From: Sphaeroforma arctica JP610 | Taxonomy: Eukaryota | Direction of reading: 5' to 3' | Length of the DNA stretch: 34,297 bases | Assembly: GCF_001186125.1 (NCBI RefSeq) | Contig: NW_014039677.1 | Location: 1 to 34,297, forward strand | Shown: one piece after another, positions 4,364 to 33,480 of the stretch | Layout: each line of letters begins with the position of its first letter | Position numbering within the stretch: the stretch's first letter is position 1 | Made by a program: the position numbers and the translations under genes | The notes under the pieces: generated by a model | The model's database searches: none | What the model was told of the DNA's origin: nothing | What the model saw: only the letters and a program-made list of their open reading frames with translations

Positions 4364-4534
4364 GATGCCATAAAGGCAAACTAGGAGACTTGTGGACTAA
4401 GGAGTGTGATGACGCGTTTAAAGCGCTCAAACACGCAGTCCAACTCGCCCCTGTTGTACAAGGACCAGTGATGATTTAGTTTGAACCGAAATTTGGAAGT
4501 AGTACTTCAACAGCGTGATTAGCCGGGGTATGTG

Positions 4535-5289: not shown

Positions 5290-6943
5290 TCAACTACAGT
5301 AAATAAACAGATATTTAAATATCAAGAAGGCTATAGTTTTTGGTTGTTTTTTTTTTTGGAAGAAGGCTATATTGTCATTGTTTTTAATAATAAAAACATG
5401 GTTTTTTAAAAATATTTACATATGGGTTTTTTTTCTTTTTTTAAGAAACCGATTTAGGAGACTACGGGTTTTCTTAGTGTTTTTAAAAAAAGCCGAAACA
5501 CATTGTTTCATAAGCCGGTTAGGCACTCAGACCGTCAGGCGTCAGCAGCTGACTCAGCTTCAACAGTTAAAAAATTAAAACCCAACACTTCTAAAAAAAG
5601 TAAATATTTATGTAAAACCCGTTGGCCGTGGCCGGCCCTTGGGCCGCAGGCCGGGTTATTCGAGTTTTTCTAGCTCGGTCAATAACGGTTATCGGTACTT
5701 GTGGAATCATAGTTGGTACTTTTAAAAAAAACATATAATAAAAATATTAATAGATTAGTATAATAAATATAAATTTTTACACTCTCGCGCAGTCACGCAC
5801 AACTGCACATTCTCTTGGCATCGCACAGTGCCACAGACGCACACTTCTTGTGTCGGACGACGCACGGTCAGTCACACACACACATAATACGCGCACTCAA
5901 AAGCCAAAATCTCTTCTATTTGCAATCTGGAAACTATGTATGCATATGTATGATTTGTTTGTTTGTTTTTATAAAAAAATGAATACACACTTGTTGTGTG
6001 GGCCTTGTAGGGCCATGAGACCGTCAGACTGTCAATGCCATCACAGGCTCACAGCACAGATATTGCGGCCTGCGGCCCTGCGGCCTACGTGGATAAACTT
6101 TTTGTTTTGTTTTGTTTTAGGAGGAATTACAGTGAAATGTCCTCTATTTTTAGAGACTTGAATGTATTTAAATGTGTGTGTAGAAGAAGGCTATTTATTG
6201 CAGTCCTTTATTAGGAGAGTGATACATAAAGATACCACGAATATACGTTATAACGTTTCGTAAATATAGAAACTTTATACGTTTATGTAATTTTTTGTTT
6301 TATTTTTACAAAACAAAATCTTCTGCACATAAATATGTATAAAAAAGGAATTTGTTGTCCGAGAAAATTGCCTTTTTGAACACAAAGCCATCAGGCATCA
6401 GCCTTGAAATTTGTTTTTTACTATAAAAAACAAAATATGTATATACGACGCTATTTCCAACAAAACATAGTAAACGCACAGATAAAAATTAAATATACCC
6501 GATTCCTCGGAGTGTGGTGGATTGCTTTAAACGAGAACATGGCTCTCAGTAATCCTTTATTCGGTATTCCTGTGAATGTATTTATTTTCAATTTTAGAAA
6601 CGACTAGTAGACTACTCTAGAGTAATACGTAGGCTCTATATTTATAAATATAAATATATATATACATATTAGTGCAAAGTTGAAGAGAGCGAGAAGAAAG
6701 AATCCGTAGGACAATACATTGCATATATAATAGCTCTCACAGTAAATGAGCTACATATTAATAGTTCAATACTCGAGCATATACAACACCACGCAAACTA
6801 CAAGGGTAATAACGCGTCAATTAGTAACGATTTCCGTAAAATTCATCAGAATATACAACAGTACACAGTTCATAAACGAGAAACAACACCCTCTCGAATA
6901 CAAAACAATATAATATTCGAGTTCAATCAATCAACCAAGCAAC

Positions 6944-7909
6944 ATGTTCAGCATTAAATGGGATGATATGGACCTGGGTGACGTAAGCTTCAGCGACCTG
7001 GCTGGTAGTCGCGCCCCCGCTCGCGTCATAGATCATGAGAATGTTGCGGTGCGAAAGGCAGCTGTAAAGGGCACTGTTGAGATTATAGCGGACATGATTT
7101 TAGAAGCGAAGGGTAATCTAGTGTTTCTAACTGGGGCGGGGATGTCAGCCGCGTCTGATATACCTACTTTCCGAGACCCCGATCACGGTGTCTGGGCAAC
7201 ACGTGATCCCAAACAGTGTGGTACTAAAGAGGCCTTTGTGCATCACCCAGAGAGACTCTGGACTGTTTTGATGGACGTGGTAGGCCCGGAGAACGACCCC
7301 AAGCCCAACTTGGGTCACAAAGCGCTCGGAGATTTAGAAGCTTTGGGCTTCACATCGACCGTGGTCACGCAGAATGTTGATGACTTGCACGAAAACGCAG
7401 GTAACAAAGATGTCATGCACTTGCACGGCAATCTGTGGCGAACTTTCTGTGTAGCGTGTGGGTTGCAAGGGACAAACACGCACGAGTTATTGCGCACAGT
7501 GAAGAAGGTGGACTTGCCACCGCGCTGCGATCACTGTCACGGGGTGTTGAAGCCCGACGCGATTTTATTTGGCGAGTTATTAGACAATAGTATAGTGGAT
7601 CGGGCTTCCGATTTGGTCAAGCACACACCGCTATTGTTTGTGTTAGGTACCAGTGCTAGAGTTACGCCTGCGTCCGACTTTCCGATCATGGCTGCAAATC
7701 ATGGGGCGAAGGTGGTGGAGATCAATATGGAGAGAACTCAATTGACAGACACATGCGTAGATGTATTCATGAATGAACCTTTAGAGGTAGTGCTACCGCA
7801 GATAGTTGAGCTGGTGAGGCAAAAACATTTAAAAAAGGATCCTTTAGGAACGTCGATGTTCACACTTCTGTCGTCGGTACTGAACGGGTCATCGAAAATG
7901 CCGGAGTGA
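6944..7909 (+). CDS. NAD+-dependent protein deacylase, sirtuin (Sir2/CobB family), intronless
   Basis: Intact 321-aa ORF with GAGMSAASDIPTFR, TQNVDDLH, HLHGN, CVAC...CDHC zinc module, KPDAILFGE, GTSARVTPA and EINME. Confidence 0.95.
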   Translation: MFSIKWDDMDLGDVSFSDLAGSRAPARVIDHENVAVRKAAVKGTVEIIADMILEAKGNLVFLTGAGMSAASDIPTFRDPDHGVWATRDPKQCGTKEAFVHHPERLWTVLMDVVGPENDPKPNLGHKALGDLEALGFTSTVVTQNVDDLHENAGNKDVMHLHGNLWRTFCVACGLQGTNTHELLRTVKKVDLPPRCDHCHGVLKPDAILFGELLDNSIVDRASDLVKHTPLLFVLGTSARVTPASDFPIMAANHGAKVVEINMERTQLTDTCVDVFMNEPLEVVLPQIVELVRQKHLKKDPLGTSMFTLLSSVLNGSSKMPE

Positions 7910-8007: not shown

Positions 8008-8331
8008 AACATACTGGCCTCAGCAGTGAGTGCGATGGAGAACACACCGTTGTTATTTGTACTGGGCACAAGTGCACGTGTGAGCCCGGCCACAGACCTA
8101 CCTGTGATTGCCTCGAACGCGGGGGCAAAGGTTGTGAAAATCAATATGGAGGAAACCCAACTAACCCACACGTGCGTGGACTACTACCTGCACGCGCCCC
8201 TAGAGACTGTCTTGCCACAGATCGTCGAGTGTGTGCGGAGGATACACCGGGAAAGTAAACCCCGGTCATCCATTGTGGCGTCTTTAAGCAAGACATTCTC
8301 GAGACCCTCACTGCTTCCCGACCAATTATAA
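8008..8331 (+). CDS. Diverged partial duplicate of the sirtuin C-terminal third (possible alternative last exon or gene fragment)
   Basis: TPLLFVLGTSARVSPATDLPVIASNAGAKVVKINMEETQLTHTCVDYYLHAPLETVLPQIVE aligns without gaps to the sirtuin C-terminus. It is preceded by an AT-rich tract ending in ...tatag (8007). Confidence 0.7.
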   Translation, partial: NILASAVSAMENTPLLFVLGTSARVSPATDLPVIASNAGAKVVKINMEETQLTHTCVDYYLHAPLETVLPQIVECVRRIHRESKPRSSIVASLSKTFSRPSLLPDQL

Positions 8332-13703: not shown

Positions 13704-14801
13704 CTTACTTTTTGAAATATTGATTCCAATAATCCCGAAAGTGAAGAACAAATCAAATGCTAAATACTGTCATGAAATTTATATTTGCATTCATTCAAAT
13801 CTCACACCTGGTCCTGAAGAGAATAATCGTCATCAACTCAAATTAACTGCACAATCTTGTTGATGTGCCGAAAAACTTTCAAATGTCGAAGATTAGTGAG
13901 TTATTTGCAAACATGGCCTTACAAAGGAAAGAGGATGAAGCCCACCAAAAACAATGGAAGAAGGACTAACATTACAACACCAATTCTGGCTTGAGTGTCC
14001 GGCATACAGCAATGTACAAGATGCTAATAATCATCTAGAATCGATTCAGCGCATCCTCGAGGAGTTTCATATCAATAGAGATACAGTCTCTGGCACGATA
14101 ATCAATATCGTGACACATCTTGCCTTAATGCGTAGTCAATACTTTACGACACGAGAGCAGAAGTTCTTGACACTAACTTTTGTGAGTTACAAAGCTCAAT
14201 ACGCTGACCTAGGCGCAGACCATAATACAATCGCCTCACAACCCGCTACAACACACTTGTCACACAACTCACTGAAACACAACAAGTTATATTAAGAACG
14301 CAAGCAGCACGCGGATAAGGGTTGTAACGCTAAAGCTGAGGAGAATCTTCGTGGCGAACTACTAAACGCGTACGATGAGATAGAGAAACTCAAAATACGC
14401 AACGACAAACCTAAAACTTTCGTGGAAAGATTTGGCACATCGGCTCAACAACCAATCATCCCTGAAAATGAATACCCACAGTGTAAGGACGCATACAATG
14501 AGACAAACTAGAAAGCTATCTCAACTTTGGCAGTTGGTTCGCTGGCCTCCGCATGGAACTAGACACTCGGTGTTTTCAGCCGGTTACACCTAGAATGCAG
14601 CAATACACTCTTTGGTGGGACGATAGACATCGCCGCTAACAGCAAGTGCCGTCGAATACTCGTAGATTCTATCAGCACAGTACTCATCAAGGCGGTATAC
14701 AAGCAATACATATCAAAACCGCCTCACGTGTTCTTCAATCACATATGTGTGGCAACGAACACTGGCAGTCAAGGTAAACTATGGGGCACCCTATAGGAGC
14801 T

Positions 14802-15294
14802 TGTAAGAGTGCAATGTAGTAGACTTTAAATAAAGCGCAGATGTATGTATTTATTCTAACCACACATTTGGTTAAATACCTAAGTTGTTTGCGCTAGTGT
14901 TCAGCCACTTGGGCTGCCCAGGGTAAAACCTCGTATGGCCAGTTTGAGAAACCTTCTGCAAAACACTTTAACATTTCGATGCTATTCTATTTCGACTTCT
15001 CTACAACTAAATCTCACGCTGATCACATGATGGCTGATGCCTTTCCGCATAGGTTGTGACTCACAGATAACCGCAGCTATCTTTACAATGTTGCGGTTGG
15101 CAGACTTAATCCACTCTCGGGAGCTGGTTGAGAAACTTAATCTGCTCTCGGAAGTCGGTTTAAGTATTTACATAACTCTCGGGAGTAATTTAAGCAACTT
15201 GATTAGCTCTCGGGAGTGAGCTAACTCTGATGACTTCTATAAATCAAAGAGGGTTTCTTGCTGTAAAAACTGGCCTGAGATATGTAGTCTCTGA
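14802..15294 (-). repeat. Solo LTR (same family as 2990-3507) inserted in the gag of copia remnant A
   Basis: Begins tgtaagagtg. 5-bp TSD gagct (14797-14801 and 15295-15299). The host frame rejoins as ...LWGTL*ELINFNSAES. Confidence 0.85.
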
Positions 15295-15376
15295 GAGCTC
15301 ATCAACTTCTATAAATCAAAGAGGGTTTCTTGATGTAAAATCTTGCCTGAGACCTGTAGTCTCTCAGAGTTCATCA
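15233..15376. repeat. 72-bp tandem duplication spanning the LTR end, TSD and host flank
   Basis: acttctataaatcaaagag...gagctcatca is repeated at 15233 and 15305, bounded by acttc microhomology. Confidence 0.85.
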
Positions 15377-16557
15377 ACTTCAATTCAGCAGAATCAATGG
15401 ACAAAACGAAGCAAGCCCTTGAAGAGATTCGTCAGCGACTTTTGAACGTAGGGGAGTGTATACTTGACCGATATATTATCTGCGCCTTGATGTACGGTCA
15501 CCCAGAGGACTACAGACCCCTACGCACAGAGGTCTTCAAGAAGGACAACGAGAACATCACAACAGACGATGTGTATGAGATGACACTAAAGTACGAAGGC
15601 GATAATCAAATCCGCACCCAGCCTCATCTGTCGGGTATAAACGCTATCAGAGACGAGATCGAGGCATTAAAGGAACACAAACCCTGCCTCGCATTCGGCC
15701 TTAAAGGTCACAACATATACTCGTGTCCAACATCAGTCTGTCATCGATGCGGGGTAAACGATCACATGGGAAAGAAATGTCCAGTCGATCGCAAGACCTT
15801 GATCTGCACACAACGTGATAAGCCGGGCCACAATGCCGACGCATGTCTACGCAAGTGAAACGTTCGGGTCCACGGCTCTGCAGGGGGTGCTAGTAACGAC
15901 AATGACTGCGGTACGCCCAACACGACATCAGGTACGGAACACACTGAGAATCATAGAATACATAGCATCACTACAAAACTGGGATCCTTAAACCACACAC
16001 TTATAGCACAGGCACTTGTAAATTCCGATGCCATGATACATACTCGCACAGATGATATGGAAGTGAAAAGCATTCAGTACGGTAGATTAACTGTTGAATT
16101 TTCTGATGGATTGCAGACTATAGTCCACCGTCGCGGTATCATACCGAACTTAGGAGCGGTGCTGATTATGCCCCACAAGCATCACAAGATATACTATCAG
16201 TTAAACTTATACACCGTATCGGACTCGGGGTCTATTTCCCAGCCGAACCAGATATCAATAAGCCCACCCAATGCTTAATCCTCAACGACAATAACATTCA
16301 ACACAGTATTGATGAACATAAGGGGCAATATAGGACAGCCAATGAACATAGCGATATACCTCCAGCATGGCATGCACGATTAGAGCACTCACCCCCGCGA
16401 AACATTGCAGCTACACTACAAGATAATAGTGTGCAGAAGATACCACGCAAGGGAGTGTCCACTATGAACTATTTGCTCAACAGGAGCGTATACCTAGACG
16501 ACGTCGTCGAACCTTTCGGATACGTAGATATATATTTCTTTGCAGTCTTCAGTCTTT

Positions 16558-16666
16558 AGCGGCTGATCACTAGCACAAACACCTGAGGTATAAAACCAAA
16601 TGTGAGGTCAGAAATAAAGACATACATTTGCACTTTATTTAAAGTCTACTCCATTACACCCTAACA
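16558..16666 (+). repeat. 3' part (R/U5) of the 5' LTR of copia element B
   Basis: Reverse complement of ~2990-3098 and ~14802-14910. Contains AATAAA and ends in CA directly before gag. Confidence 0.85.
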
Positions 16667-18953
16667 ACTTATCAGGTCACTGAGGGTACCGATGGACACC
16701 CAAGGAAATCGCTGAGGAATATCAGATTATCAACCGTACCTTATCTCCACTACTGCAGATGGAGATCTGCCAATTTATTTATTAGCCGTGGGAAGCTTTC
16801 GCCGCACTGCAACGCAAGTTTGAAGCCCTGACCGAAGATGATATTCAGACATTAGAAGGGAAACTGAACCGCATCACGCAAGAACGGAACGAATCTTCGC
16901 CAGTCTTATCAGTCGTCTCAACACATCATTTGTGAAATTCAAAAACGCCGGAAGTTCGAAATCCAACAACAGCCCATGCGCTATCCTACGGCAGGCTGTA
17001 AACGACGATAATCATACTGTTAAGATTACGTTAAAGACACCGCTATGATGGAGATGTCGTATGATGACCTCACCACGTATCTCATCGCATTGGATCCAGA
17101 CGAAAGTGACCCATCAACCATTATGCACGGTGCACATGCAACTATATCGACAGGAAATTGTGCATACTGCAACAATCAAGGACATTCCACCGGGCAATGC
17201 AGATAGCTACAAGCGTTAATCAAATCGTGAGTTGCTGGTAAACCACGTAATCAGGGTCGTGACACGACGGTCGTACTCCTTACGCTCTGTTCCTCGTCAC
17301 GACATGAGAGACTACAGATATATGTCCATGAATAACTACAAGCATAGCCGACATGATTCAGATCGTGTTTTACACGTTATAAACGATACAACAGAAACAA
17401 CCGATACCAATACCTCTACGATAATCACGATGATCATGACCGACAGAACTACCGAGTATATAGATACAATCGACGCGACTACGACGATGGTAGATATTCA
17501 CGAGATACCTAACGTTCACAACAGTGTCAGAACATACCGATTCTAGAGCAATTGACGCCTAGCTCATGAAGGCAGACAGGACAAAGCATGTCAGCCCAAG
17601 TGTCCGATGACCAGCTACCTGCTAACAGACAGATTGCATTCTCCACAATTAACACTACAATCGACAACTAGGAGGTGAACGATCAGTCGGACAAAGATTC
17701 GAAGAGGTGGATACTGACTAGCTTGCGATAGTTCCGCCACCGTACACTTACTTTCCTATACGTACCACAAGCATCATCTCGTCCGCAACATATGCCTTAA
17801 TGACAGGTATGCGCTCGAAGTAGCTGATGGTACAATCATTTATTCAAAGTATGTGGCTCAGCTACGAAACCTGGGGGACGTACTCATCGATATGACATTC
17901 AAAACTGCACTACTAAGCATCATCAGCCTGCTCTCAGAGCGACACTACTCATTTGAATTCATCATCAACATGATATACATATTACTACCAAGCTTTTGGA
18001 ACCATAACAGTGCATGAAAAGCACAAAATATACTGCGTGCACATCAACGACATAGCTATGACTACAGGGGAACCATCGCTAGAGAAAGCCAACCAGATTG
18101 CATGGCTCAACAGGCTCGCGCACTCCAGCTATGTCCCAAAAGATTTACCCTACATAAAGCAATCAGATGAACGATGCAAAGCATGCACTATTGCAAAGAA
18201 GAAGAAGAACCTGCCACAGAGCCTCTCGAGTTGGTCTTCGTCGACATAATAGGCCCGTTCGCAACGTCAATAGGTTCCAACACCCACTCTGTATCAATCA
18301 TAGACTATCTTTCTAGCATGGCCAAAGAGTATTCGATCAATTCTTGACGCTATGGTACACACATTCAATAAATGATTTGTCTTAATTCGTCGCCGAGTTC
18401 AGTGCATACAAATGGATCGAGGTTCACATTTTACAGCAAACGTAACTAGATGCTTGTGTATTTGGGATGCTGCTCAAAGTACGCACCTACAGCCACGCCA
18501 CAGCACCATGGCAAGTTAGAGAGACTGCTGCAGATCGAGTATTTTATAATAGTACACCTTCTTTTATTTAACTAAACTAGATTTTTAGCTTCGACGTACT
18601 GAATCCTCAAGGTATACTAAATGAACCAAACTGGTCAAGCCTCTTGGCTAATATTCATTTGCTCATACATCGTTCCTCGACGGTCTGAGACTCTGAGGGC
18701 ATGTTCTAACTCGTAACTAATACGAGTCCACACTGATAAAAACTAACTCTCCACCAATAGGAATGCTGCCCTAATTACTCTAATTGCTCCTTGCTCTACT
18801 TGACCACAGTCCTGTCCTCTACCCCGAGGCAGAGGTGCAGGACTACATCAGTCCTTGTACCCTGCGGATCTACAACCCCCCCCCCCCACCAGATTCAGCA
18901 ATGGCTGTGTACAGGGATTTCTGGATCTCAATGTCCGAATGGTACCAACCCTC

Positions 18954-19379
18954 CTAAGTGTCCAGCGAGTCTAGGTCCAATTGCGTGGCTGCCAACTTCA
19001 ATTTCCATTCCTCTAACTGGTCGTCTTGTAACACATGTGAATATGCGAAACGGTATGCTAAATTAATGCCTGACAACTTCGATTTGGCCTTCTTGATCGT
19101 GCGTGCATGTCCATTGAAGTACTCTTCATCCTCCATCCTGAACGTCTCTACTCTATGATGCCCGTGCTCGTTGGCCGGTTTCTTGAAAAACATAAAACTA
19201 AAATTACATCTATATATAAAATTAATCGCTACTGGCGTAGTCAACCCTTTCCTTGGGAGCCGTCGCAAAAGGTGAGTCGTATAATATCCAACTACTATAC
19301 GGTGATCTGGTAAAAGATCCCCGCGGTCTCGCCTCACGACGGCACCTCTCGCCCTTTGTATCTGTAGTTGTGTGAGCAC
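18954..19379 (-). CDS. Second ORF fragment in the non-autonomous element, unknown product
   Basis: 141-aa ORF on the element sense strand, ending just before the PPT. No motif recognised. Confidence 0.3.
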   Translation of the reverse strand: MLTQLQIQRARGAVVRRDRGDLLPDHRIVVGYYTTHLLRRLPRKGLTTPVAINFIYRCNFSFMFFKKPANEHGHHRVETFRMEDEEYFNGHARTIKKAKSKLSGINLAYRFAYSHVLQDDQLEEWKLKLAATQLDLDSLDT

Positions 19380-19520
19380 CTCGTCTGCTGCGACTGCTTG
19401 TGCGGCTGTGTCCGCGTGTGCTTCCGCTTGTGAGTAAAACTCCGTGCCATCCTCTCCTATCTTTACTAACCGTGCTGGTCTACCTCGAAGCGCCCCACTG
19501 AGCCATAGTGGTGTATTAGG

Positions 19521-20117
19521 TCACACCCGTGGCCGTACATGCTTCGCCGATGCGGTTTCCGACTGTTGATGTATTGCCTGGTTGGCTTCGTACACTTGTT
19601 GTGGCGTCAGACCCGATGATGTTGTGTCTAGCTTACTAAATTTCATCGGGGCATTCTGCAATGCTTTCTTACTGCGTCCCTGGGGGTTCAACTCTGTCTC
19701 CGTGGTGTAAAAATTTCTGCCTACCGCGAATTCTGCTAATTCCGTCATCATGACTGCTCGCCGCCATGCTGCACGTTCTGTTGGCGCACTCATGTCGGTT
19801 TGCTTCGCGTGGATATCTACCGTGAATCCCGGACCAAACAGGTAACTTGCCGCCTCAAAATGTTCAATGAGAACCCTTTCTACGTCATGAATACTCGGTT
19901 CATTCGGCAATAATGGATAAATTTCAATAAGCACTGACTGGTCAATATATTCGTACATCAATTCCAAAAGGTCACTCCTTGCATTAGGTCCTTTAGCCAG
20001 AGTGCTGCAGACTTTGCCTTTGGTAAACTTCTTCCAAGGTCGCAAGAATGCACCAATGGGATCATATTTTGCCACCATGTACATGCGTGGGGGACGATCA
20101 TATTCGTTAGTTGACAT
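19521..20117 (-). CDS. Putative Gag-like protein of the non-autonomous element
   Basis: 198-aa ATG ORF starting ~110 nt after the 5' LTR on the sense strand. Assignment rests on position and helical character (VERVLIEHF). Confidence 0.5.
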   Translation of the reverse strand: MSTNEYDRPPRMYMVAKYDPIGAFLRPWKKFTKGKVCSTLAKGPNARSDLLELMYEYIDQSVLIEIYPLLPNEPSIHDVERVLIEHFEAASYLFGPGFTVDIHAKQTDMSAPTERAAWRRAVMMTELAEFAVGRNFYTTETELNPQGRSKKALQNAPMKFSKLDTTSSGLTPQQVYEANQAIHQQSETASAKHVRPRV

Positions 20118-22199
20118 GTCGGAAGGTAGTGACTGACACTGTTGGCAAAAAAATAAAATAAACCCTCTTTAAGATGTTGTCTACTACCTACTTATTAACT
20201 CAGCTACGTTCAAGCTAGTTTGGTTGTAGATCGAGTATTCTTTAATAGTACACCTTCTTTTATTTAACTAAACTAGATTTTTAGCTTCGACGTACTGAAT
20301 CCTCAAGGTATACTAAATGAACCAAACTGGTCAAGCCTCTTGGCTAATATTCATTTACTCATACATCGTTCCTCGACGGTCTGAGACTCTGAGGGCATAT
20401 TCTATCTCCTAACCAATACGAGTTCACGCTGATAAAAACTAACTCTCCACCAATAGGAATTCTGCCCTAATTACTCTAATTGCTCCTTGCTCTACTTGAC
20501 CACAGTCCTGTCCTCTACCCCGAGGCAGAGGTGCAGGACTACATCAGTCCTTGTACCCTTCGTATCTACACTGCATGGTACATTGGTCCCTAGAATGATT
20601 GTACAACTGAAGTATGCCCGTCTACCGACTACTATGTGGGCTGAATCATTGATTCAAACTACCAACATATACAATGCTATACCCACCGACGGAAAGAGCT
20701 CATCCCAAACGAGAAATTCACAGGATACGCATTTCCGATAGATATGTTTCGAATATTCGGGTGTCACATTGCGTACAAGAACTGTGATCCAGACGGCAAA
20801 CTCGACGATAGAGCACTGGGTAGCATTCTCCTTGCGTAACCCTTGGACACAACACCGGACTCGTATCGTATATTTTTTCACCTCTGACCAATCGTATAAT
20901 ACAAAGCCGAGACGTCTATATATTCGAAGACGACTTCTTTGTCTGGGAAGGCAACAGATGTACAACCGCTATCGCACCACCAGACACTATAAACAACAGC
21001 ACATTTCTCCAAATCGAGAATGACGATTTCCAAACAGACGCAAGGACAACATCGACAACGGAAGATATTATTAGCCAACGAGCCCAGCCAACTGTGCCGC
21101 AAAAGTCGAGCAACTCAGAACAACTACAAATAACTTCATCGTCAACATAACCTATTGAGAGCGAAGTACATACTGGTGAGTTGGAGGCTCCCGTAGCGAC
21201 TACCAAAACACAACACGATGTGGAAGCAACCATAGCTAGGAGAACGGCGGAAGGTCGCCAAGTCTCTCGAGAACAGCGAGACTTTGCGAAAGGTGCTAAT
21301 AACGTCAATTGGTATCACGACAGCCGCCATAAAAGACGATCTTCCATTCAGCAATGGAACTGAAAATATACAAAGGTATATACGAGATAACAAACGCAGC
21401 CGATTGAGAGGAATCAGCACGTTCGGAAATCGAGAGCTTGGTGATGCAACGCAGAGCATTCACTCTGGTTGACAACAAACCACGGGAGAAATCACTATTC
21501 CCCCCTCGATGGGTATTCAAGGCAGAACGGATGAATCAGTATAAATCACACGACTTAAATCACGTCTGAACGTAGCAGCATTCAACGCAAAACAGAGAGT
21601 CGCTTACGATGAAAACTATGCCCCAGTAGTAGCCAAGGAAACACTCAGGATATGTCTAGCTTTAATGGCACACTTCGACATGGACATTTGACAATACGAT
21701 ACACCCTCGGCGTACCTCACTCAAGAACTGAATACCCCTAGCTACGTGCGAGTGCCGCAAGGATACGATCTCATCGAACATCTACTGGACCCGTCTCAGA
21801 GACAATTATACGAAAGGCACAAAGAAGGAAACACAAAGGTCGTATGTCGAGTTGACCGTTGCGTATACGGTCTACCACCTAGCTGGCACTATTGGTTTAA
21901 AGCTATTCTTTGGTTTGCTATAATTGACCATTATAAACAAGCGCAATCTGATGGAGCACTGTTCATCAAACAAACCCCCATCGAACCGTGTTTCATTATT
22001 GTACACGTAGACGACAAAATTGCAGCATGCCAGAGTAAGACTGACGGACACAAATGAAACAGGGATTAACAGACTGCAAACCAGCATGGGTGCCAATTCT
22101 AGAGTCGGACTATGAAGTAACAGACAAACACGCATATCTCCCAGAAAGAGCGGCAAGTTCAGATGTCCCAACAATCATACAATACAACAAGCTTAGATC

Positions 22200-22430
22200 G
22201 GTAGTAAGTAGTCGAGGATAACTGTATCTCAACGTACTCCCCTCGTACAAGGGGAGACGTTGTTTATTTATTGATCTAAATCCTGTGACTATCATTTTGG
22301 TCATGTGTTTTCCGTTAATCAGTTTTAACCTGATTGGATAAACCCAGTTCAAAATGTAGTCTCTAATAAAACCCAAATATCAAATAAACCCTAATTCTAA
22401 ATAAACCCTATCAGGGACTTCCTGACTACA
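22200..22430 (-). repeat. 3' LTR of the gypsy element
   Basis: Direct repeat of 29997-30227, adjacent to the PPT. Confidence 0.95.
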
Positions 22431-22500
22431 ACCCCCCCAAGCTGAAACACCACAAGTGTGCGAGCTTAAAAGATTGAAGGAATGCCCTGAAAGCGGTTAC

Positions 22501-22599
22501 GTGCTGGCATTTATTCTCAGAGAGCTAGATCATTGTGCTGGCATTTATCCTCAGAGAGCTAGAGCATTGTGCTGGCATTTAACTTCAGAGAGATAGAGG
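22501..22599. repeat. 3 x 34-bp tandem repeat in the gypsy 3' UTR
   Basis: gtgctggcattta..ctcagagagctaga.catt at 22501, 22535 and 22569. Confidence 0.9.
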
Positions 22600-22689
22600 G
22601 CTCGGCTATTTGTTCACCACTCGAGCTGGTGACTAAACGGTAAGTACACGTAACTTAAAATTGTATATATTAACAAAATTGTCTTCTAA

Positions 22690-22880
22690 CTATAACTGGT
22701 CTCTCCGGCGTTTCCGAGCTCGTGTCTGTGTATCTTTGTGATATGCCACAATGTCATTCGCGTCGTCAAAGGCCTCGGCCGTTTCCCACGTCAGCACCCC
22801 CTCATGCCAACGCACCAGGTATTCGAGTTTACCCGTAACAACATTTGTCCTATGTTTGATGATGTGACGGAACACTGACC
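22690..22880 (-). pseudogene. Chromodomain at the integrase C-terminus
   Basis: VFRHIIKHR...GKLEYLVRWHEGVLTWETAEAFDD matches the chromodomain pattern (I..HR...YLV.W...TWE). Confidence 0.85.
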
Positions 22881-22943: not shown

Positions 22944-23950
22944 TCAACCCGCACCGGCAAACTCCTGGGCAGTGGACCCATCTCTATGTGTAAGGTCATA
23001 ACCTTGACCGTTGCGGCCTTTAACTACGTATGGGCCAAACAGTGGGCGCATGGCTTTGAAAGTTCGCCCCTCCGATTTCACCATCACGATGTCGCCTTCA
23101 TCAAAGTGGACTAAGTCATGGGCGTGTAACCGATCAAACGTCTTCGTCAATTTATCCGTATAGGTCGTAGTAATCTTATGCAGTGTAGGCAAAGTTGTAT
23201 CCTGGAGCTGGTCCAACCGTTGTGCCCACGTGTCATTAGTAACCTGTTGTTGTTCTGGGACGTCATCGGTGAAATCCGCAAACGGCACGTGTCGACGTCC
23301 GAAATAAACACTAAACGGCACGCTTTTGTGTCGTCGGGAGATGCGCAAGTTCTGGTACAGCATTGTCAAAGGGGGACATTCGTCCCATGCTTGGGGTACT
23401 GCCTCACAGACGATGCGTATCGAACGTGTTATCTCCTTATGCCGACGTTCCGTTGCCCCAACACCTGTGGTCTATAAGGTGGTGATACTTTGTGAAGTAT
23501 ACCCACTGCCTTGACAATGAGGGCGGCCATGTTGTTCGTAAACTCATTACCCATATCTGTCTGTAGCTTGCGAGGGAAGCCATGTTCGCCAAAGAAAGAC
23601 AACAACATCTGCGTGGTGGTTTCCTTAGTCTTATCTGGTGTAGCACGTAAGATCACGTCTAATACATGGAGGACAAATTTATTCTGTCTTGTGGACGTTA
23701 CCGGCATTGGAATATAGTCCACCTGAATGTGATCCTAAAGGTACTTCACATCAATGCTTATCATCGGATGTAAGCCTTTACGTAGGGTATGCTGGCCCAA
23801 ACACTGTCCACATTGCCGTTTAATTCCTGTAGCCAGTTCTAATGCCCCCGGCCAAACGTGGCCGTTCTGTTGTAACTGTTGGACAGTATCGGCAGCGCCG
23901 TGGTGGCCTTGCTCATACTGTGCCGTGTGAGTTGTGTACGCCGTTGTTGT
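22944..23950 (-). pseudogene. Ty3/gypsy DDE integrase (frameshifted)
   Basis: Zinc-finger region GHHG...WPG...CGQC; HIQVDY; FPRKLQTDMGNEF; SPPYRPQ; SVPFSVYFGR; GPY/F motif FGPYVV. Confidence 0.92.
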
Positions 23951-24114
23951 TCCATCGGTGTGGCATTCGCAAAGGCCGGTTGTGCCCCCTCACTACTTAA
24001 CGCCACGGAAATCTCTCGTGCCGTTTCCAAACACTGATGGTATGGTGTGTGTCGAGGTTTGGCATAGCCTAATCGTTGTGTAAAGCTCTCGGCGAGCTGA
24101 AAACCTGACGGCGG

Positions 24115-24515
24115 CCCCACTCGTGCAATGACCGTGTGCCCCCACGGAGTCTTCTCACAGGCATACTTCGCATACTTTAGACATGTATGCGGGGTCCGGG
24201 GTACTATCACTGGCTCGGTTTGCAATAATGATTTGAAAATGTCAAACCATGGTGCGCGAGGTGTCCAAGGTAAGCACACCGTCGCTAGCCCCATCCGCTT
24301 TGATCTTCCGAAGCATGCTATGTATCAACCTCCACGGCGGGTTCATCCACCCGTCAAACAACGCCCAGTTATGATCAAATGCACTGTCGCGCTCGTTCTT
24401 TGTCCAAAACCTAGGAAGCTGCGCGTTATGGGGTGCTGCGAACACGTCTATGTTGTTGTGTCCAAAGATACGCTGTGCTTGTTCGAAGTAGCTGGGAAAT
24501 AATAGCCAGCAGTCT
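24115..24515 (-). pseudogene. N6-adenine DNA methyltransferase-like domain (phage Dam / DIRS1 MT type) embedded in pol
   Basis: In frame with the RNase H end: WLLFPSYFEQAQRIFGHNNIDVFAAPHNAQLPRFWT...DSAFDHNW...GWMNPPWRLIHSMLRKIKADG. After one frameshift (~24285) it continues ATVCLPWTPRAPWFDIF...TPWGHTVIARV. NPPW is at 24332-24343. Confidence 0.85.
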
Positions 24516-24559
24516 GCATATAGTATCTCTGGCACGTCTGTTTCCGCGGTCCCTTCATG

Positions 24560-26371
24560 TATACGACTCAGCATATCCGGCAGGACATTCCTCTCCTCAG
24601 GTATATGTGAAATGGTGAAGTTAAAAGGCGCTATAATGTGGTGCCACCTCTGTAGCATAGGATTAAGCTTAATACTTTGTGATCCGTAAACACCGCAAAG
24701 CGCTGGCCGTCAAGGTAGTCGCGGAAGTGTGTCAACCCGTAGACCAACGCTAGTAGTTCCTTCATTGGTGTCGCATAGTTCTGTTGAGCCTGATTGAGTG
24801 TCTTGCTGAAAAACATTAGGTAGTGTTTATTGCCTTCCACCCACTGGAACAACACGCCCCCCAATCCGTAGTCACTCGCGTCTGTCTCGAGGTTGAGGGG
24901 GACGTCACCCACCGGAAAGTGTAGTGCGACCGCGTTGACTATCGCGTCCTTCATTGCTGTCCACGCGTCCGCATGGCATTGTTCCCACCTATCTCCGATC
25001 AGTTCTTTCAGCTTCAGCTTGCAAAACTCCCGTAGAGGGGCTACCACGTGTGCGAAATTGGGTAGGTGTTCGTGCAAGAAGTTAGCTAACCCCGACGCGG
25101 AGGCAATGTCCTTGTATCGCTGAGGTGTTGGCCAGTCGAGGAGTTTAGCCTGCTTCTCAAAGTCAACGTCAATCCCTGCCGCTGAAACCTTCTTACCTAG
25201 TATCAAAACCTCTGCAATTGCAAAGTGACACTTCGCTGGATTCAGTTTGAAACTGTTGTATGTCAATCTTCTGATCACCTCCTTCAATTTAGCGATGTGC
25301 TCTTCATAATCGTCACTGGCAATCACAATATCGTCAATGTGGTGGTGGACTGGTAGTCCATCTAGTATCGTACTGAGTGTCCGTTGTGATTGTTGCGTCA
25401 ATACGTGTAATCTGAAAGGTGCCGATGTAAACGAGTACTGGTATCGATCGTGCGTGAAACTAAATAGGTATCTAGAATCCGGGTGTATCGGTAGTCTATG
25501 ATATGCTGCTGATATATCGAGTGTGGTATAGTACTTCCTGCTCTTCCGTCGTGAAATGATCTCATTCACCTTCGGTATCAAAAACTGGTCTCCTGGAATC
25601 AGTGCTTTGACCGCTCGCATGTCCAGACATACCCGTACCTTCTTCACATTACCCTCACTATCAAACGTTGGAACTGCGAGTAAGGGAAGATTAACCGCCG
25701 TGGGAGTGGTCCGCTTGGTAATCACTAGGTCCTTCCACCACTTCTGTACTTGTTCATCGACATGCGGTAGCCATCGCTCGGATACAAAGTTGCGTGTCGA
25801 TCGTCTCATACTCCTAGCCTGCTCGCGTGTCACCGGTATTGCCACTTCACTCCCCTCTAAGCGGCAAAGTGCATTGTCTGCAATGTCGGCGTTCGCTTCC
25901 AACACTGTGGCCAGCCTTGTCCGTACTTCGTCGGGTTCGATAAGGAGTTCATCTAGTTCCGTTGGGTCGATAGGTGCGAGTGGTGACTGAATTCCGCCAA
26001 TATATAACCCAAGGTCCGTCATCATGTCCAGCCCGAGTATAATGTCGATGCTGTCAGGGAGATTCATCAACTCGAACGCTCCATTGATGATCTCTGAGCC
26101 ATAACGTATCGGTAGCAATTCTGTTGTCCCCAGGCGAGGAGTGCGTACCGCTTTATCCGCCAAATATATAAATGATTCGCTGGGTGCTAAGTGCGGATGC
26201 TCGTGCGATGCAACTACGGTTCCCACCTGTATCTATCAACGCTCGGAATGTACGACCTTTCACCTGCAATTGTATATAGGCACGGATGTCGGAGGACAGC
26301 AGTGGGTCTTTTATTGCCATCACTGTCTTCAATGGATGCGTGAACGTAAATGCTACATCATCATCGGACAC
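24560..26371 (-). pseudogene. Ty3/gypsy protease, reverse transcriptase and RNase H (frameshifted)
   Basis: Protease FRALIDTGGNRSCI. RT KVRVCLDMR, TTLDISAAYHRL, HIDDIVIAS, KLNPAKCHF. RNase H ETDASDYGLGGVL, KELLALV, FTDHK, HIPEERNVLPDMLSR. Confidence 0.95.
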
Positions 26372-26699
26372 CCTGAGGTCTCAGTGTTGCTCTGTTATCG
26401 GAGTCCATTGGGGCTGCGATGTGTCCGTCTGTTTATCCGCGGCCTGCTCGATGTCATTGGTTCGGATGGAGTGTATATGTAACTCTGTGGCCGACTGGCT
26501 ATCGTGTCCCGGACCCTCCTCCTGTGTGAGCACATTAACCTGTGGTATCGTCGTAGTTGAGGTCGACTGTCGGCTTAGGTATTCTGGTGGTTGGTGCACG
26601 GACCCCTGTGGTGGCGTAGGTGGCTGTCCCATTGTCACCTCTATCTGCTGCTGACTAGTGTCTGACGTCCGTGTCCTCACGTCCTGCCCCCCATGTTGG

Positions 26700-28415
26700 G
26701 CCGCTCGGTAATGGTGGCAGCGCGGTATGTGTCGCAACCCTGGAGGTGCTTGTGCGCGGCAACCGTTGCACGTCATTGGGTTAGTTGTTGGAGTCGGGCG
26801 TTGTTGCCATTGTTGCTGCTGACGCTGGACTATGTGTGAGCTAGGTCTATTATTCGTCGTCTCCCCCCGGGCTGAGTCCCCATTGTGACCTCGACGATTG
26901 ACTAAACCTTATNNNNNNNNNNNNNNNNNNNNTCCAACAATTGAACTATGCAGTGGTTGAGCAAATTTTTCTTAAAATCTGCATCGATCTGACAACGCTC
27001 GTGTGCCCGACAATGATTCTACTTAAGGTGTGTCATCTGTTCCATCACTGGAACATTACTAAGTTTCTGGTGTCCCTTTGCTAATTTGCGAAATGTGGGG
27101 TCCACCGTAGCCTGAGTCTCGTGTGAACAGATTTGTGTTATTTGGAGTTCTGGTGTCCATGCAACTAAACGTTGGTGATTAGATTTTATATAATCAAGTG
27201 TAGATTGTTTGGCTTTAAAGTGGCTTAACACCTTATAAAACCAACGAAGACTCCATGCTTCGTCGACACCCGAAATCTGCGCATTCTTAAGGGCTTCTCG
27301 CAATGCCCCTTTAGTGTCGCGCTCCATAATGTTGCTGAGGTTATACCAGTTCGAGGGCCACTCCGGCCAACTACGTGGTTCCCGTGGTTCCTGTTTGTTC
27401 GCCGGTCGTGAGTCATAGGTTGCTCTTTATGTCTCGAGTACACCTCTTAGTGCCTCCGCTCGTGGCAAGTTGTTGGCTTCCACTGCACTACATGATTCCT
27501 CCGACAATTTGAGCATACGCGCGTGCAAGGCTTGGCGGTCCGCCGCTATGCTGTCTGGTGTAGGAGGTGTGGCCTGCTGAGCCAAGCGTCGACGCTTCTC
27601 CGATGACGTGGCTTAACTCGACGGTGTGCGTTCAAGCAGCCTGCGTGACGGTAGACTGTCATTCATAGCTTCTCATACAAATTGTTGGCTTTGACGTTGT
27701 GCTTGTAAAGACGTGTCCATGTTGTCACGTCGATTATCCAGTGCCTCCCTCCCGTGAGGATTCTGTGTAGCTCTACGTTGTTCCTTTGCAAAGTTTTGAC
27801 GAGATATCGTTTCCTGTTGTGTATCGCTTTCGTCCTGATCCGACGAAGTGTACCTTAACCCACGACGGGCATCGTCGGCTCCTCTAATGCGGAACTCGAT
27901 GTTGTCCGGTGATGAAGGTGTGTTCCCTCGTCACAGTCGACGCAAACGCCGTTCATATTTCTCTAATAGCGATTGCTGTCGCCGAAGTAGGCTCGTCATT
28001 TGCTCTGGCATGTCATCGTCTCTACCTCGGCTCTGTTGTCTCTCTTTGATATGATAACGAGGGCGCTTACTTGTTACAGCCTGTAATGCCTCTCGAGGAG
28101 CTGTCCCCTCCTGGTAGTGAGCCTGCGACGTCGAATGTGGCACTCTCATTAGTTCGGGGGTACGTCGTTCACGATCCGTGAAGTCCACGTCACTCGGAGT
28201 GGTTATTCGCCCGTCGCGTTGTTGTTGTGCTGTAGTGTCCGCTGGAGTATTGTTTGGTTAGTTCGACGTTCTGACTCTAAGTCCTCCTACACTTCTCCAC
28301 CCGTATCTACTCGATCATGAGTACGTCATCGGAAACCTCGTTGATGGATGTCATCCCGTTCACGTTGTTCTGGGGATAGCTGTTGCTGCCGACGACTCTG
28401 TCGAATGTTAGCCAT
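26700..28415 (-). pseudogene. Degenerate gag region of the gypsy element (contains a 20-N gap at 26913-26932)
   Basis: Located upstream of the protease. ATG at 28415, R/Q-rich fragments, and a Cys/His motif CNGC...H...C at ~26720-26770. Confidence 0.55.
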
Positions 28416-29347
28416 GGTTGAAGTAACCTTCTGTTTGTCTATTGATAGCAATGTGATGTTTCAACTTATTTTCCTTCTGACTTAAATAGGCATTCGACTG
28501 TGAATCTCACGCCTACTAATTACTCAAAGCCCCATTAACCATTCTCCTATCAACGTGTTCTTGTACCCCTGCCTGGGTCTTGTTGCACTGAAATCGTCCG
28601 CTCATGAACCTCGTGCTCCAGACTACCCCGGTTATCCTTGCGGTTGCTCCTTACTCCTTCCGACCAACCCCGTACTCTCGATACCCATGCCATTTCTCGT
28701 TTTGTGGGTTCTCTACTCCTCATATTCTTGCTCTATTGTTCCGTACACATGTCTCTTTGCTACCGACGTTCTCCCGTTTCACTTTCGGCTCTGACCCTAG
28801 TTAGTTGGCTAACTTGCTGCCTATCGTCGTCGTCGCTGTGTCTTGGTGCTGCTCGTTCTCACACCACACTTGTCTACCGTAACTCATACGGTATATTCAT
28901 ATTCACATTGAAATCGACGAATTTGGTCGGACCACTCGTATGCACATTTACAATACTCACTCCCTCGTGTACTCAATTTAGTACTGTGTACACACACCCT
29001 ATCGTTCTATGTAGCGTCGTGTCACTCCTATTGTGTTTGTATCTTTTATCTTATGTACCCGAACTTGCTGTATGACTGTCATTGCATGTGCATCTTACTT
29101 CAGTGTCTATGTGCGCATGTCATTTCTTTGCAAACCTATGTCTTCTACTAATAATCTATTTAGTTTACACCTGGTTACTTGAGTATCTATCCCATATCAT
29201 TCCTCTCTCTCTTATTCCTGTACCCAATTTCTTACATACCTTTTGGATGCCTGTACACACGTGTACTTCGTGCTCGTTGCCATGGCGATGCTCAAACATA
29301 TACACCTACTTGACTTCTTTTTGTTTTCCTTGACCTTCTGATACCGT

Positions 29348-29842
29348 CTACAGTTCGTCCAAATCCTCCTTATTCTTCTGGATATCCTTCCTGATTTGAG
29401 TCGATTCTCGTTCCGGTATCGATGCCCATGGCTCCGTGCGCTCCTCTTGTCGCGGCATGGTCCGTAAAGTCCACTTTAATGTGATCGTCGGATTCCTATT
29501 CTCTTGTTCCCACACAACATTTTCTCTGTTGCGATTATCCGTTGTATTACCTATCGTTGACGTCCTTAGGGTCTCCTGACTGTTAACTTTTATGTCCTCT
29601 AGTCGTCTTCCTCTCTCATCTAACCTGTCTACCTGTCGATGTACATGAGATTGTATTCTACGGTTGTGTTGATCCACACGGCTCGCCTGCCCCTGTATAA
29701 TTACGGTTCCCTCCGTCATTTCATGTTCTGAAGCACTACTGCTGTTTAGTAGAAGTGTTGGTATGCTATTGCTTGTATCGCTACTAATAAATACACTCTC
29801 CGTATCATGTAACAATGGTTGGGTCGTGTTGGAAATCATCAT
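29348..29842 (-). CDS. Extra sense-strand ORF in the long 5' region of the gypsy element
   Basis: 164-aa ATG ORF starting ~155 nt after the 5' LTR, S/T-rich then charged. No motif recognised. Confidence 0.4.
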   Translation of the reverse strand: MMISNTTQPLLHDTESVFISSDTSNSIPTLLLNSSSASEHEMTEGTVIIQGQASRVDQHNRRIQSHVHRQVDRLDERGRRLEDIKVNSQETLRTSTIGNTTDNRNRENVVWEQENRNPTITLKWTLRTMPRQEERTEPWASIPERESTQIRKDIQKNKEDLDEL

Positions 29843-29996
29843 TTCAGTGGCTGATGTCTACTGATGCCTAGGACTTTCTCTCTTCTTTATGTCATCAAAA
29901 TTTTCTACTTCTATCTGTGGACCTTTCGGTCCTATTATCTTCTTTTCCTATATAGGATAAGCTCAATTAATGTACAACATCTAAGGCAGTTAAAAA

Positions 29997-30227
29997 TGTA
30001 GTAAGCAGTCGAGGATAACTGTATCTCAACGTACTCCCCTCGTACAAAGGGAGACGATGTTCATTTATTGAACTAAATCCTGTGACTATCATTTTGGTCA
30101 TGTGTTTTCCGTTAATCAGTTTTAACCTGATTGGATAAACCCAGTTCAAAATGTAGTCTCTAATAAAACCCAAATATCAAATAAACCCTAATTCTAAATA
30201 AACCCTATCAGGGACTTCCTGACTACA
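29997..30227 (-). repeat. 5' LTR of the gypsy element
   Basis: Direct repeat of 22200-22430 with TG...CA termini. Confidence 0.95.
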
Positions 30228-30445
30228 GATCAAACACGATTGGATATATGCATTGCTGTTTCGATCCTAAATCGCTATCTGATAGCACCACAGTACCACT
30301 ACTTCAAAGGAGCCAAGCGCTGTTTGGGGTATCTCGCTGGTACTCAAGACTTCGGCCTCGAATACACGAACAACGAACCATGTATTCTCTATTTGAGTGC
30401 AGACAGTAAAACCCACAAATCTTCGGCGGGTTCTACTATGACCTA

Positions 30446-32967
30446 AACAGAACCTGAGTTCAGCGGCTGCCAAACAACTCGTTCCGCCCACGTTTGACCG
30501 CCCAAAGCAATGCTCAAATGTTCGAAGATATTGCGTACCAACGACGGTCTCCGCGCCAACCCAGCATACCGGGTGCCGATGACACAGGCGCCACCCTCAC
30601 TGGCTACTTTGAGGACCTATTCAACTCTACAAACCCGTACGTGTTTCTACCGAATACTGAACCCTCGCCCGATGTAACTTCCGCCATACGCCCCGACGAT
30701 GTATTGGAGGCTATACCACGCTATCCCAATAAGGGGCCTGACCTCCTGAAGGCCGCAGTGGAGCGCTCCACCAAACGCAGGACACTAGGACGCCCAGACG
30801 TCAATAGCCCACTGATTAGACTCCTTGCTGAAGCATTCACTGAGCTACTGAAGGCGGGTACCTTCTCTGCAGCCCTTCTCTGCAGCCTCCTGACAACGCA
30901 CCCAAAGAAAGCCGATGCAGATATCACCTCCCCCGCCGACTTCCACCCTATCACGCTTACGCAAATAGTCTATACTACGCTATCCCAATAAGGGGCCTGG
31001 CCTCCTGAAGGCCGCAGTGGGGTGCTCCACCAAACGCAGGACACTAGGACGCCCAGACGTCAATAGCTCACTGGTTAGACTCCTTGCCGAAGCATTCACT
31101 GAGCTACTGAAGGCGGGTACCTTCTTCTCTGCAGCCTCCTGACAACGCACCCAAAGAAAGCTGATGCAGATATCACCTCCCCCACCGACTTCCACCCTAT
31201 CACGCTTACGCAAATAGTCAGAAGCATCTTTGAGAAGTGGTTTCATAAGCTGATTACGAGCCACCCCGGTTCTGCTACCCATGCTACCCAAGCTGGCTTA
31301 AAATCACGATACTCCTGTCATACCCAAGCACTCGCCGCCATGGAATCTGAGAAACAGTCGGAAGAGGAGTGGAACGACGTCTGTCTGGACATTACCAAGA
31401 CATACGACAAGGTTGCTCTCCCACGCCTATGGGTACTCCTGCGCCACGCCGGAATGCACGAAAACTGGATCAACTGGCTCCGCGCGATAATTGAGAGGGT
31501 TCCTACCCGAGTGACATACCGTTGCACGCTCTCGCCTCTATTCCATAGAACGAATGGCATCCTACAAGGCTCAATCGTTGGCCCCCAGCTTTTTATTATT
31601 TACATGGATTCCTTAGCGGTCACACTATCACAATTTTGGCACAAGCTCCTCCGCTCTTATTTGTTTGTCGGCGACACACGGATCCAAGCCCCCCAACCGG
31701 TTCCGCTCCAGCCCTTCTTAGATGACATTGATGGGCGGGGACGCAAATCTGGCCTCGAACAGGGTGTCATCAAACCCCGAGAATGATCTACCGACTTGCG
31801 ACACGCGGCGCCAACCCTCCGTATAAATGGTGAGCTTATCACGCTGACTCTCGCAGACGCACCTTGAAACACACGTTACCTCCCTCTGAAGATGGCGCCC
31901 ACACATGTCAAGCCGAAACGCTCCAAATATCTGGGGTCCCCACTCTCTCACGTTATACAAGGGATCGACTTCGCCAGACATATGTAATCCCTGGTTGCAG
32001 CATTGTCCCTGGGTATCACCTCTTTCCACGCTTATGGCTTCCATGGCTTCAGCTGGCGACAACCCTGCAACCGACTGGTGCTGTTCGAAACATTCATCAT
32101 ATCCACGGCTACATATGGCCTGAACATTATTGCCTGGGCTCCACCTATATGGAAGGATGCCCTGGACCCCCTGTTCGAGCGCTATAACTCAGCACTCATC
32201 CAGGCAGCAGTCACCATCAAAGGCACTAAATACCCTAGGTTTCCCAAACATCAAACAAACGTACTCCACTTTTGTGGCCTGCTCCCCGCACGACCATTCG
32301 CGGACTACCTCGGAGGTTGCCTGGGAATACAACTCGACTCAATGGCCAGCACAAATACACTTACCCCTCTGACGCAACCCGCCTGGGCTCATGACAAACC
32401 ATCACTGCGCTTCCTGTACAGTATCTAAGCCCACCTGAAAACTGTACACAAAACCACGGGCGGGCGTACACCCGACCAGCTCTCCACCAACGCTGTGACG
32501 ACTTCAGAAGGAACTCATCAAAATGCTGGTCCAATAAGGAGATCGCGGCAATGGCCCGGCGCCAATACTACTACCAACTGGTAATGGGTAAACCGCCAAC
32601 CTTAAATCGAGACAAAGCCAGACACGACAGCTTCAACCGCTGATTCGAGCCTACACCCATCCGGCTCTGTGCTATGATTTTAACGAATACGTACATGTTC
32701 ACATTGATCGACTACCGCACTGACGGTTGTCTCTACCCAGTCTGCCCCGGTAGCCACAAATTCACCACTAGCCACTTTACCTGCATCCAACAATTGATCC
32801 GACGCATCCTGGTAAGCCTGAAACTGCCACCCATTGGCCCTGACCTCCTCAAGCAAATACAAGAGCGTCACGACTTCCACGGTATCTGGACCCTCCACGA
32901 ACACCTTGGATTCTTTCTCCAGCATGTAGAACAACCACCGTACCCACACCCGTCTCTGACACATTAA
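30446..32967 (+). mobile_element. 5'-truncated non-LTR retrotransposon (LINE), degenerate RT and C-terminal Cys/His knuckle
   Basis: KGPD, PKK...SPADFHPITL, CLDITKTYDKV, GILQGSIVGPQLFIIYMD, YLFVGD; C-terminal CLYPVC...H..C. Boundaries are approximate. Confidence 0.88.
30718..31219. repeat. ~259-bp tandem duplication within the LINE
   Basis: acgctatcccaataagggg...acgcaaatagtc occurs at 30718-30972 and 30977-31219. The second copy has a small deletion. Confidence 0.9.
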
Positions 32968-32977
32968 TAGATGTTCC

Positions 32978-33480
32978 CCATATCCCGGCTAATCACGTTG
33001 TGAAGTTCGACTTCCAGAATTAGGTCCATATTAAGTCATCGCGCCTGTTGGTTCCGTCTATGATACTTCTGATTCAGATCAACCAGCACATATCGAATAC
33101 ATCGGTGGTCTGTTCGGCATCGGTTTACTTCCAACCTCGCTTCTCAACCGAACTATGACAGATAACCTGGTCCTACTCGACATTTTGTACTCTGCACTAA
33201 CCCATTCGAAGGCAATGCACGGTGCAGACCCGATCCGTACCACAAAGGTGGGTACGCTACATAGTAGGTCAGCAAGCGAGTACTTAGCACACTCGATAGT
33301 GCAAGGTTTTTTGTCAGCACCGGCCAGAATTGATCCAGTGCATATCCTCCATCGTCGACTCACTTGGCCCAAGTTTCAAACGGGAACTTACTGACCACTT
33401 CTTCCCATCGATATTCCCCGAACCACTACAACGGCTATGGGAGCCATACCATATGTACATACATTGTAAATAATCTCCTT
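32978..33480 (+). repeat. Unclassified interspersed repeat with a degenerate ORF; its 5' part matches the reverse complement of ~4470-4534
   Basis: catatcccggctaatcacgttgtgaagt...cttccagaattaggtccatattaagtcatc compared with the reverse complement of gatgatttagtttgaaccgaaatttggaagtagtacttcaacagcgtgattagccggggtatg. Confidence 0.5.

Follow-up and report, generated by a model that had tools for sequence, protein, structure and literature searches.

LTR retrotransposons that carry a DAM domain (DAM-LTRs) were first claimed, in five lineages, in a preprint of May 2026 (Fernandez-Moreno et al., bioRxiv 10.64898/2026.05.21.726589), and one of these lineages is described there from Pirum, Abeoforma and Sphaeroforma arctica and said to be without chromodomains. 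In this preprint, higher 6mA and expression are reported on the DAM-LTRs of S. arctica and Abeoforma whisleri, representative DAMs of DIRS elements, DAM-LTRs and adintoviruses are reported to cause no rise in 6mA in dam- E. coli, and a model is put forward in which reverse-transcription intermediates are marked and AMT1 then maintains the mark. Ty3/gypsy-like LTRs are the only recipients of DAM named in its main text, and in our literature search (papers up to 2025 by listing) a DAM in integrase-type LTR elements was found in this preprint only. A related methyltransferase (MT) also stands right after RNase H in DIRS1-type elements (PMC4738411; PMC5890265); Iyer et al. (PMC4738411) assign the MTs of DIRS elements to the PCIF1 clade and judge them likely inactive, and PMC5890265 treats DNMT captures and cites the DIRS adenine methylases. 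The element from S. arctica that we describe here is a member of the DAM-LTR lineage of the preprint and is not new. The initial annotation of the locus, made from the letters alone, had raised the question of novelty, and the answer is negative, since DAM-LTRs, chromodomain-bearing ones and the ichthyosporean lineage among them, were already in that source. Our additions are modest, namely an overlooked chromodomain poor in cage residues, codon-level evidence for selection, and a PCIF1-like fold.

The window, by which we mean the whole stretch of 34,297 nucleotides of S. arctica JP610 that was analysed (contig NW_014039677.1), contains an 8.0-kb Ty3/gypsy LTR retrotransposon on the minus strand. 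As had been proposed from the sequence, it lies between matched LTRs and a target site duplication (TSD): the LTRs are direct repeats of 231 bp with TG...CA ends (5' LTR, 29997..30227; 3' LTR, 22200..22430, with 6 mismatches, one of them at the terminal base), and the 4-bp TSD reads GATC (left copy 22196..22199, right copy 30228..30231). The insertion site is the RT of a copia element, and the empty copia site was recovered in contigs of three of the four runs examined, which confirms the TSD. A polypurine tract of seven G residues, recognised from sequence, adjoins the 3' LTR (22432..22438), and no TGG-type primer binding site was found after the 5' LTR (29950-29996), where the best self-priming match was only 7 nt; no tRNA gene was found in the window. 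Three 34-bp tandem repeats are present in the 3' UTR (22501-22602).

Reading in the direction of the element, on the minus strand throughout, a decayed region with several short ORFs (26381..29857, interrupted by an assembly gap at 26913-26932) is termed gag-like from its position only, and the two pieces of it that were tested gave no meaningful Pfam match. It is followed by the start of an aspartyl protease (26186..26290, DTG motif at 26222-26239), placed by alignment to the relative P0124, with no Pfam match in the adjacent piece tested, and by RT and RNase H (24631..26232; RVT_1, E 2e-15; RT_RNaseH_2, E 3e-27), in which the YxDD of RT is HIDD (25330-25341). Near 25940 (25939-25949) the window copy is without some 33 bases that other copies have. 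RNase H ends in NVLPDMLSR (24563..24589), and beyond it come a Dam-like amino-methyltransferase domain of about 140 residues (24112..24529), an integrase H-H-C-C zinc finger (23801..23920), the integrase DDE core with its GPY motif (22944..23734; GPY at 23022-23036; rve, E 1e-8) and a diverged chromodomain (22720..22878, with YLVRW and TWE), such that the order of pol is PR-RT-RH-MT-IN-chromodomain. The initial annotation had listed this same succession after the MT; the zinc finger (a weak match, E 0.09), the integrase core and the GPY motif stand, and the chromodomain reaches only a sub-threshold score in Pfam. The frameshift at 24285 that it had noted is also real, yet it is not the single break implied, as pol has frameshifts near 24680, 24285, 23924, 23455 and 22926 (five in all, the last upstream of the chromodomain) and also a stop codon in frame at 23735-23737. 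These lesions of pol, HIDD in place of YxDD and a decayed gag mean that the window copy is dead. Its family can nonetheless be taken, on the 97% identity of the LTRs, to have been active recently. A gypsy-type RT, the PR-RT-RH-IN order, a DDE integrase, and direct LTRs with a 4-bp TSD place the element in Ty3/gypsy and, despite the related MT right after RNase H, set it apart from DIRS1-type elements.

The surroundings are rich in other mobile DNA. Nested copia pieces (gag, CCHC, RVT_2) occupy 14800-22190 and 30230-33000, a LINE-like RT is found at 30458-32428, and related repeats occur at 2990-3508, 14802-15367 and 16558-16666 (inverted). Within the copia material, at 18529-20524, direct repeats of 300 bp (96%) flank a pair of ORFs on the minus strand (188 and 215 aa), neither of which has a Pfam match; this is possibly a small non-autonomous LTR element. 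A second gypsy-type element on the plus strand (2186-4530) has a gag-like ORF and RT, and an assembly gap precedes the place where an MT would be expected. The window also holds an intronless-looking sirtuin gene (6914-7909, plus strand), whose best non-self matches are in Creolimax fragrantissima (57%) and Amoebidium parasiticum (44%) and whose further relatives are mostly prokaryotic or unnamed; a second, incomplete copy of the C-terminal part of this gene follows at 8008-8331 on the same strand.

The methyltransferase domain itself is readily detected. Reading on in frame from the end of RNase H leads, as had been claimed, into a match to PF05869 (Dam) that exceeds the curated cut-off (30.7 bits against 28.1, E 2.9e-7, profile positions 10-79 of 169; 29.4 bits and E 7.5e-7 in a further scan) and whose E value is also below the 1e-5 used to recognise DAM-LTRs. 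The motif series first noted from the letters is present on the minus strand, with DVFA at 24437-24448, NPPW (Asn-Pro-Pro and an aromatic residue, as in DAM-LTRs) at 24332-24343, and TVCLP at 24268-24282 in another frame than NPPW, where the domain resumes past the frameshift at 24285 and continues to about 24112. This latter piece gave no Pfam match when scanned alone; it aligns with P0122, an intact PR-RT-RH-Dam-IN Pol, at 37.5% over 56 aa, and with the S. arctica protein SARC_07150, to which 36 of 51 positions are identical. Among 1.84 billion representatives, SARC_07150 is also the best match of the MT (60%), and the search yielded 304 proteins with E values of 0.001 or less. Dam was matched in all 24 relatives scanned, which were picked by length and rank from the 150 listed of these 304, and the order RH-Dam-rve was found in eight of them. 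Identity between the window element and P0122 is 35% over the MT (48/137), 37% over RT, 51% over RNase H, 29% over the integrase core and 26% over the chromodomain. Matches to phage N6A-MTases were weak (42 phage records, best E 3e-5); the phage PF05869 adenine methylases share the DxFA and NPP[WFY] motifs, and differ in being free-standing genes at about 30-39% identity. A PDB sequence search with the MT half alone gave no meaningful match, and a word-based search among longer proteins with the piece spanning the RNase H end and the MT gave none in 110 candidates. The ESM Atlas returned clusters from eukaryotes as well as one, at 0.84, whose PF05869 share is 14%, which we treat as a lead only. 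The one metagenome locus (L001) was rejected as a relative, since the match is fortuitous, covers 22 residues and lies in DNA of bacterial appearance.

Given that the region is full of nested elements, and that the MT nests among DIRS-like MTs, a fragment of a DIRS element might have landed once in a single dead gypsy copy. Sequencing runs argue otherwise. At 24285 other copies have two bases more in all eight runs examined (of 24 listed), so that the frameshift is absent from most other copies, and contigs cross both the junction of RNase H with the MT and that of the MT with integrase, contigs of copies about 80-87% identical among them. In one run (X18, guessed to be RNA; record 10, 24102-24560) the deepest contig has a 25-base deletion across the NPPW region, and contig depth cannot rank expression. 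The segment is thus present in other family members, where the initial annotation had suggested looking for it, and because other copies are in frame, the variants they share are biased toward silent changes and the same order recurs in distant, intact Pols, the MT is a trait of the family and not a peculiarity of the window copy. The one-off insertion, to which we attach practically no probability, is refuted, since the segment continues the RNase H frame, recurs in other copies, evolves under purifying selection and occupies the same position in distant, intact Pols.

Neutral evolution of the MT, which the annotation had also proposed to check, is not what the variants suggest. We scored 40 listed variants of the 93 variant sites over the MT. 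The 26 that are shared among subfamilies (10-85% of depth, run X4) comprise 21 silent and five replacement changes (pN/pS 0.07-0.09, p below 4e-8), and the 14 that are peculiar to the window copy or to one other copy comprise one silent and 13 replacement changes, a difference between the classes that is significant by Fisher's test (p 8e-6). As the classes were defined post hoc and each site was scored singly, this pN/pS is indicative and no formal dN/dS; with that reading, the tally is indicative of purifying selection on the MT in the family. These data also bear on whether the domain is retained merely as a nucleic-acid- or SAM-binding module, or as a structural part of Pol, for which catalysis is irrelevant. 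Such a role would sit well with the inactivity that Iyer et al. (PMC4738411) ascribe to DIRS MTs, with the negative dam- E. coli assay of the preprint (10.64898/2026.05.21.726589) and with the broken motif of SARC_07150. However, SARC_07150 may be a dead copy, NPPW is invariant in the 12 relatives of the element's own MT clade (12/12, at about 35-40% identity), and the one listed variant within the NPPW codons (24341) is silent; we consider a non-catalytic domain unlikely. The intactness of NPPW had initially been presented as a contrast to DIRS elements, and this is not borne out, NPP[WFY] being present in 114 of the 151 MT relatives examined, a set biased by the query.

The ancestry of the two parts of the polyprotein appears to differ. 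In an RT-RH tree of 60 rows (two chosen rows failed to align; a tree of 121 rows concurs), the element falls in a clade of 10 rows, all of them Dam-bearing Pols and including A. whisleri P0272 (SH-aLRT 99), which is nested in a 26-row group rich in chromodomain-bearing gypsies (SH-aLRT 96) and separate from the DIRS-like RTs (SH-aLRT 100). In an MT tree of 116 rows, built with DIRS-like relatives as the annotation had recommended, the matching clade of 13 rows (SH-aLRT 99) lies among DIRS-like MTs. The element groups with A. whisleri P0272/P0273 in both trees (SH-aLRT 99 each), and this grouping, together with its Ty3/gypsy type, its PF05869 domain and its ichthyosporean host, is what it has in common with the published ichthyosporean lineage. 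Trees and architecture thus uphold the proposal that an integrase-using LTR lineage captured an amino-MTase related to those of DIRS elements. Since the trees are quick searches, midpoint-rooted and without bootstrap, and the label 'DIRS-like' was assigned by architecture only, we infer rather than observe the donor and the direction of capture, namely that a chromovirus-like ancestor at the base of the lineage acquired a DIRS-type MT a single time; the sequences of the preprint's authors were not among the rows. Dam-bearing gypsies that fall outside the element's clade (P0263 with P0292, P0276 and P0380) are consistent with gypsies having captured Dam repeatedly. P0380 (2382 aa, JGI) is a gypsy-type Pol in which protease, an exo/endo-phosphatase nuclease, Dam (NPPW), RT, RNase H and integrase follow one another in this order. 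A further protein, P0402 (1248 aa, ENA), is a Ty1/copia-type Pol (Pol_BBD, GAG-pre-integrase, rve, SH3, RVT_2) with Dam (E 1e-12, NPPF) between integrase and RT; it is a single-member cluster and may be a chimera.

For the fold, we turned to P0262, a clade member with a whole MT that is 47% identical to the first half of the window's MT. Its model (pLDDT 90, pTM 0.86) has a class I SAM-dependent MTase fold, which agrees with the PF05869 match as regards the profile and structure check originally called for. With the fold taken from P0262, and the DxFA and NPPW motifs present in the window, the domain is an amino-methyltransferase by predicted fold and motifs, and its activity is likewise a prediction. 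Foldseek placed PCIF1/CAPAM first (E 4e-4, TM 0.64), followed by Dim1/KsgA/Erm; VIA gave Z values of 10.1 for PCIF1, 9.9 for DIMT1 and 9.6 for KsgA, top rows that are tied, and 8.4 for M.TaqI, 8.0 for T4 Dam and 7.3 for E. coli Dam. The modelled domain therefore has RNA adenine methylases (PCIF1, Dim1/KsgA) as its nearest solved folds, not E. coli or T4 Dam. The likeness to PCIF1/CAPAM, a cap adenosine N6-methyltransferase, covers 132 aligned residues at an rmsd of 3.2 and an identity of 14%, and PCIF1 differs in having about 480 residues with extra domains, against some 140 in the retroelement domain.

It is conceivable, on this basis, that the enzyme is active and that its substrate is RNA; in the manner of PCIF1 it would N6-methylate an adenosine in the transcript or primer of the element, with consequences for stability, packaging or priming. 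Besides the Foldseek and VIA rankings, in which rRNA methylases follow PCIF1, the MT sequence profile matched PCIF1 alone in the PDB (2/2, E 0.03-0.04), DIRS MTs have been grouped with PCIF1 (Iyer et al., PMC4738411), and an RNA substrate fits the negative assay on E. coli genomic DNA (10.64898/2026.05.21.726589). On the other hand, both PF05869 and the phage matches carry DNA methylase annotations, the highest Z values lie within 1 of each other and a common fold reveals no substrate, the ranking is limited by the structures that have been solved, as the PDB has no closer sequence relative, and the fold was modelled for P0262 and not for the window's own domain. We therefore hold methylation of RNA as a tentative alternative, one that falls well short of an even chance.

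The chromodomain deserves separate consideration. In Pfam it is below the cut-off (Chromo, E 0.006, 16.9 against 25.1 bits). Nevertheless, all 23 matches up to E 10 in a PDB sequence search are chromodomain proteins (best E 0.01), among them cpSRP43, a protein with chromodomains, and a profile of 24 retrotransposon chromodomains matched it at E 1.5e-8, compared to the remaining 424 six-frame pieces from the window, which reached 0.19 at best. Similar diverged chromodomains occur in the clade members P0122, P0264, P0265, P0274 and P0414, and the cut-off C-terminus of A. whisleri P0273, without a score against the canonical retrotransposon chromodomain profile, scored 15.2 bits with a profile of seven relatives, where 200 shuffles reached at most 5.1; Abeoforma P0270 scored with neither the canonical nor the diverged-relatives profile. 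A single-sequence AlphaFold model of the domain was discarded (one long helix, pTM 0.34). By these comparisons of sequence, the chromodomain of the window can be regarded as real. In alignments, the middle W of the aromatic cage is kept and aromatics 1 and 3 are gone, position 1 being variable within the clade. Group I chromodomains, which read methyl-lysine, are defined by three aromatic cage residues (PMC3350952), and the window domain has one. With two of the three missing, the initial idea of the domain as a chromatin reader is weak, and it is probably not a reader of H3K9me. In the loss of aromatics 1 and 3 and the retention of the central W and TWE it resembles the group II chromodomains of plant chromoviruses; group II is reported in PMC3350952 from plant gypsies only, and the loss in the window domain may be independent.

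The element thus has a diverged chromodomain, as do several members of its clade, although the ichthyosporean DAM-LTR lineage to which it belongs is described in the preprint as being without one. The disagreement is probably one of detection, because the domain falls under both the Pfam cut-off and the preprint's hmmsearch threshold of 1e-5. [quoted passage not shown]

As regards the role of the MT in working copies, the reading we put first, with our confidence about evenly divided, is that it sets methyl marks on the element's newly made DNA or on its RNA:DNA intermediate. Because it belongs to Pol, the MT would be taken into the particle and work in cis while reverse transcription proceeds; the 6mA of the inserted copy would then be maintained by the host AMT1, as in the model of the preprint (10.64898/2026.05.21.726589), and this upkeep would place the copy in transcription-permissive chromatin, while the chromodomain, its methyl-lysine cage mostly lost, would probably read no H3K9me. 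The link between 6mA and DAM-LTRs is, in the data cited from the preprint, a correlation measured at ApT, the motif of host AMT1, such that host marking of transcribed copies could also explain it. The element is unremarkable in its content of ApT and CpG.

A different possibility is that a DNA motif is methylated or recognised by the MT, which could, for instance, protect the cDNA against nucleases of the host or direct integration toward GATC-like sites. The TSD of the window insertion is GATC, the classic Dam site, and the degraded chromodomain cage would leave room for another targeting cue. But this is one insertion, noticed after the fact, which may be chance, and GATC shows no distinctive depletion within the element (21 observed against 27.9 expected, with CTAG and TGCA equally low). 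We regard a motif-based role as very unlikely.

There is also a broader proposal, which we hold as doubtful. The ichthyosporean DAM-LTRs would be disguised chromoviruses, descended from chromodomain gypsies, which captured a PCIF1-like methylase once, let the chromodomain cage decay, and exchanged hiding in heterochromatin for an activating adenine mark of their own, set on RNA or an RNA:DNA intermediate. Such a substrate would also account for the silence of the domain on E. coli chromosomal DNA.

The PCIF1-like fold directs an enzyme assay toward RNA or hybrid substrates, for which the intact relatives P0122, P0274 and P0270 are suitable. The locus adds codon-level evidence for selection on the methylase in a family that appears recently active, and the chromodomain, missed in the published description, changes the inferred ancestry of the lineage. 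The lineage and the idea of self-marking are already in the preprint (10.64898/2026.05.21.726589). If it is true that a retrotransposon writes its own activating mark, this would be a transposon that exploits rather than evades the epigenome of its host.
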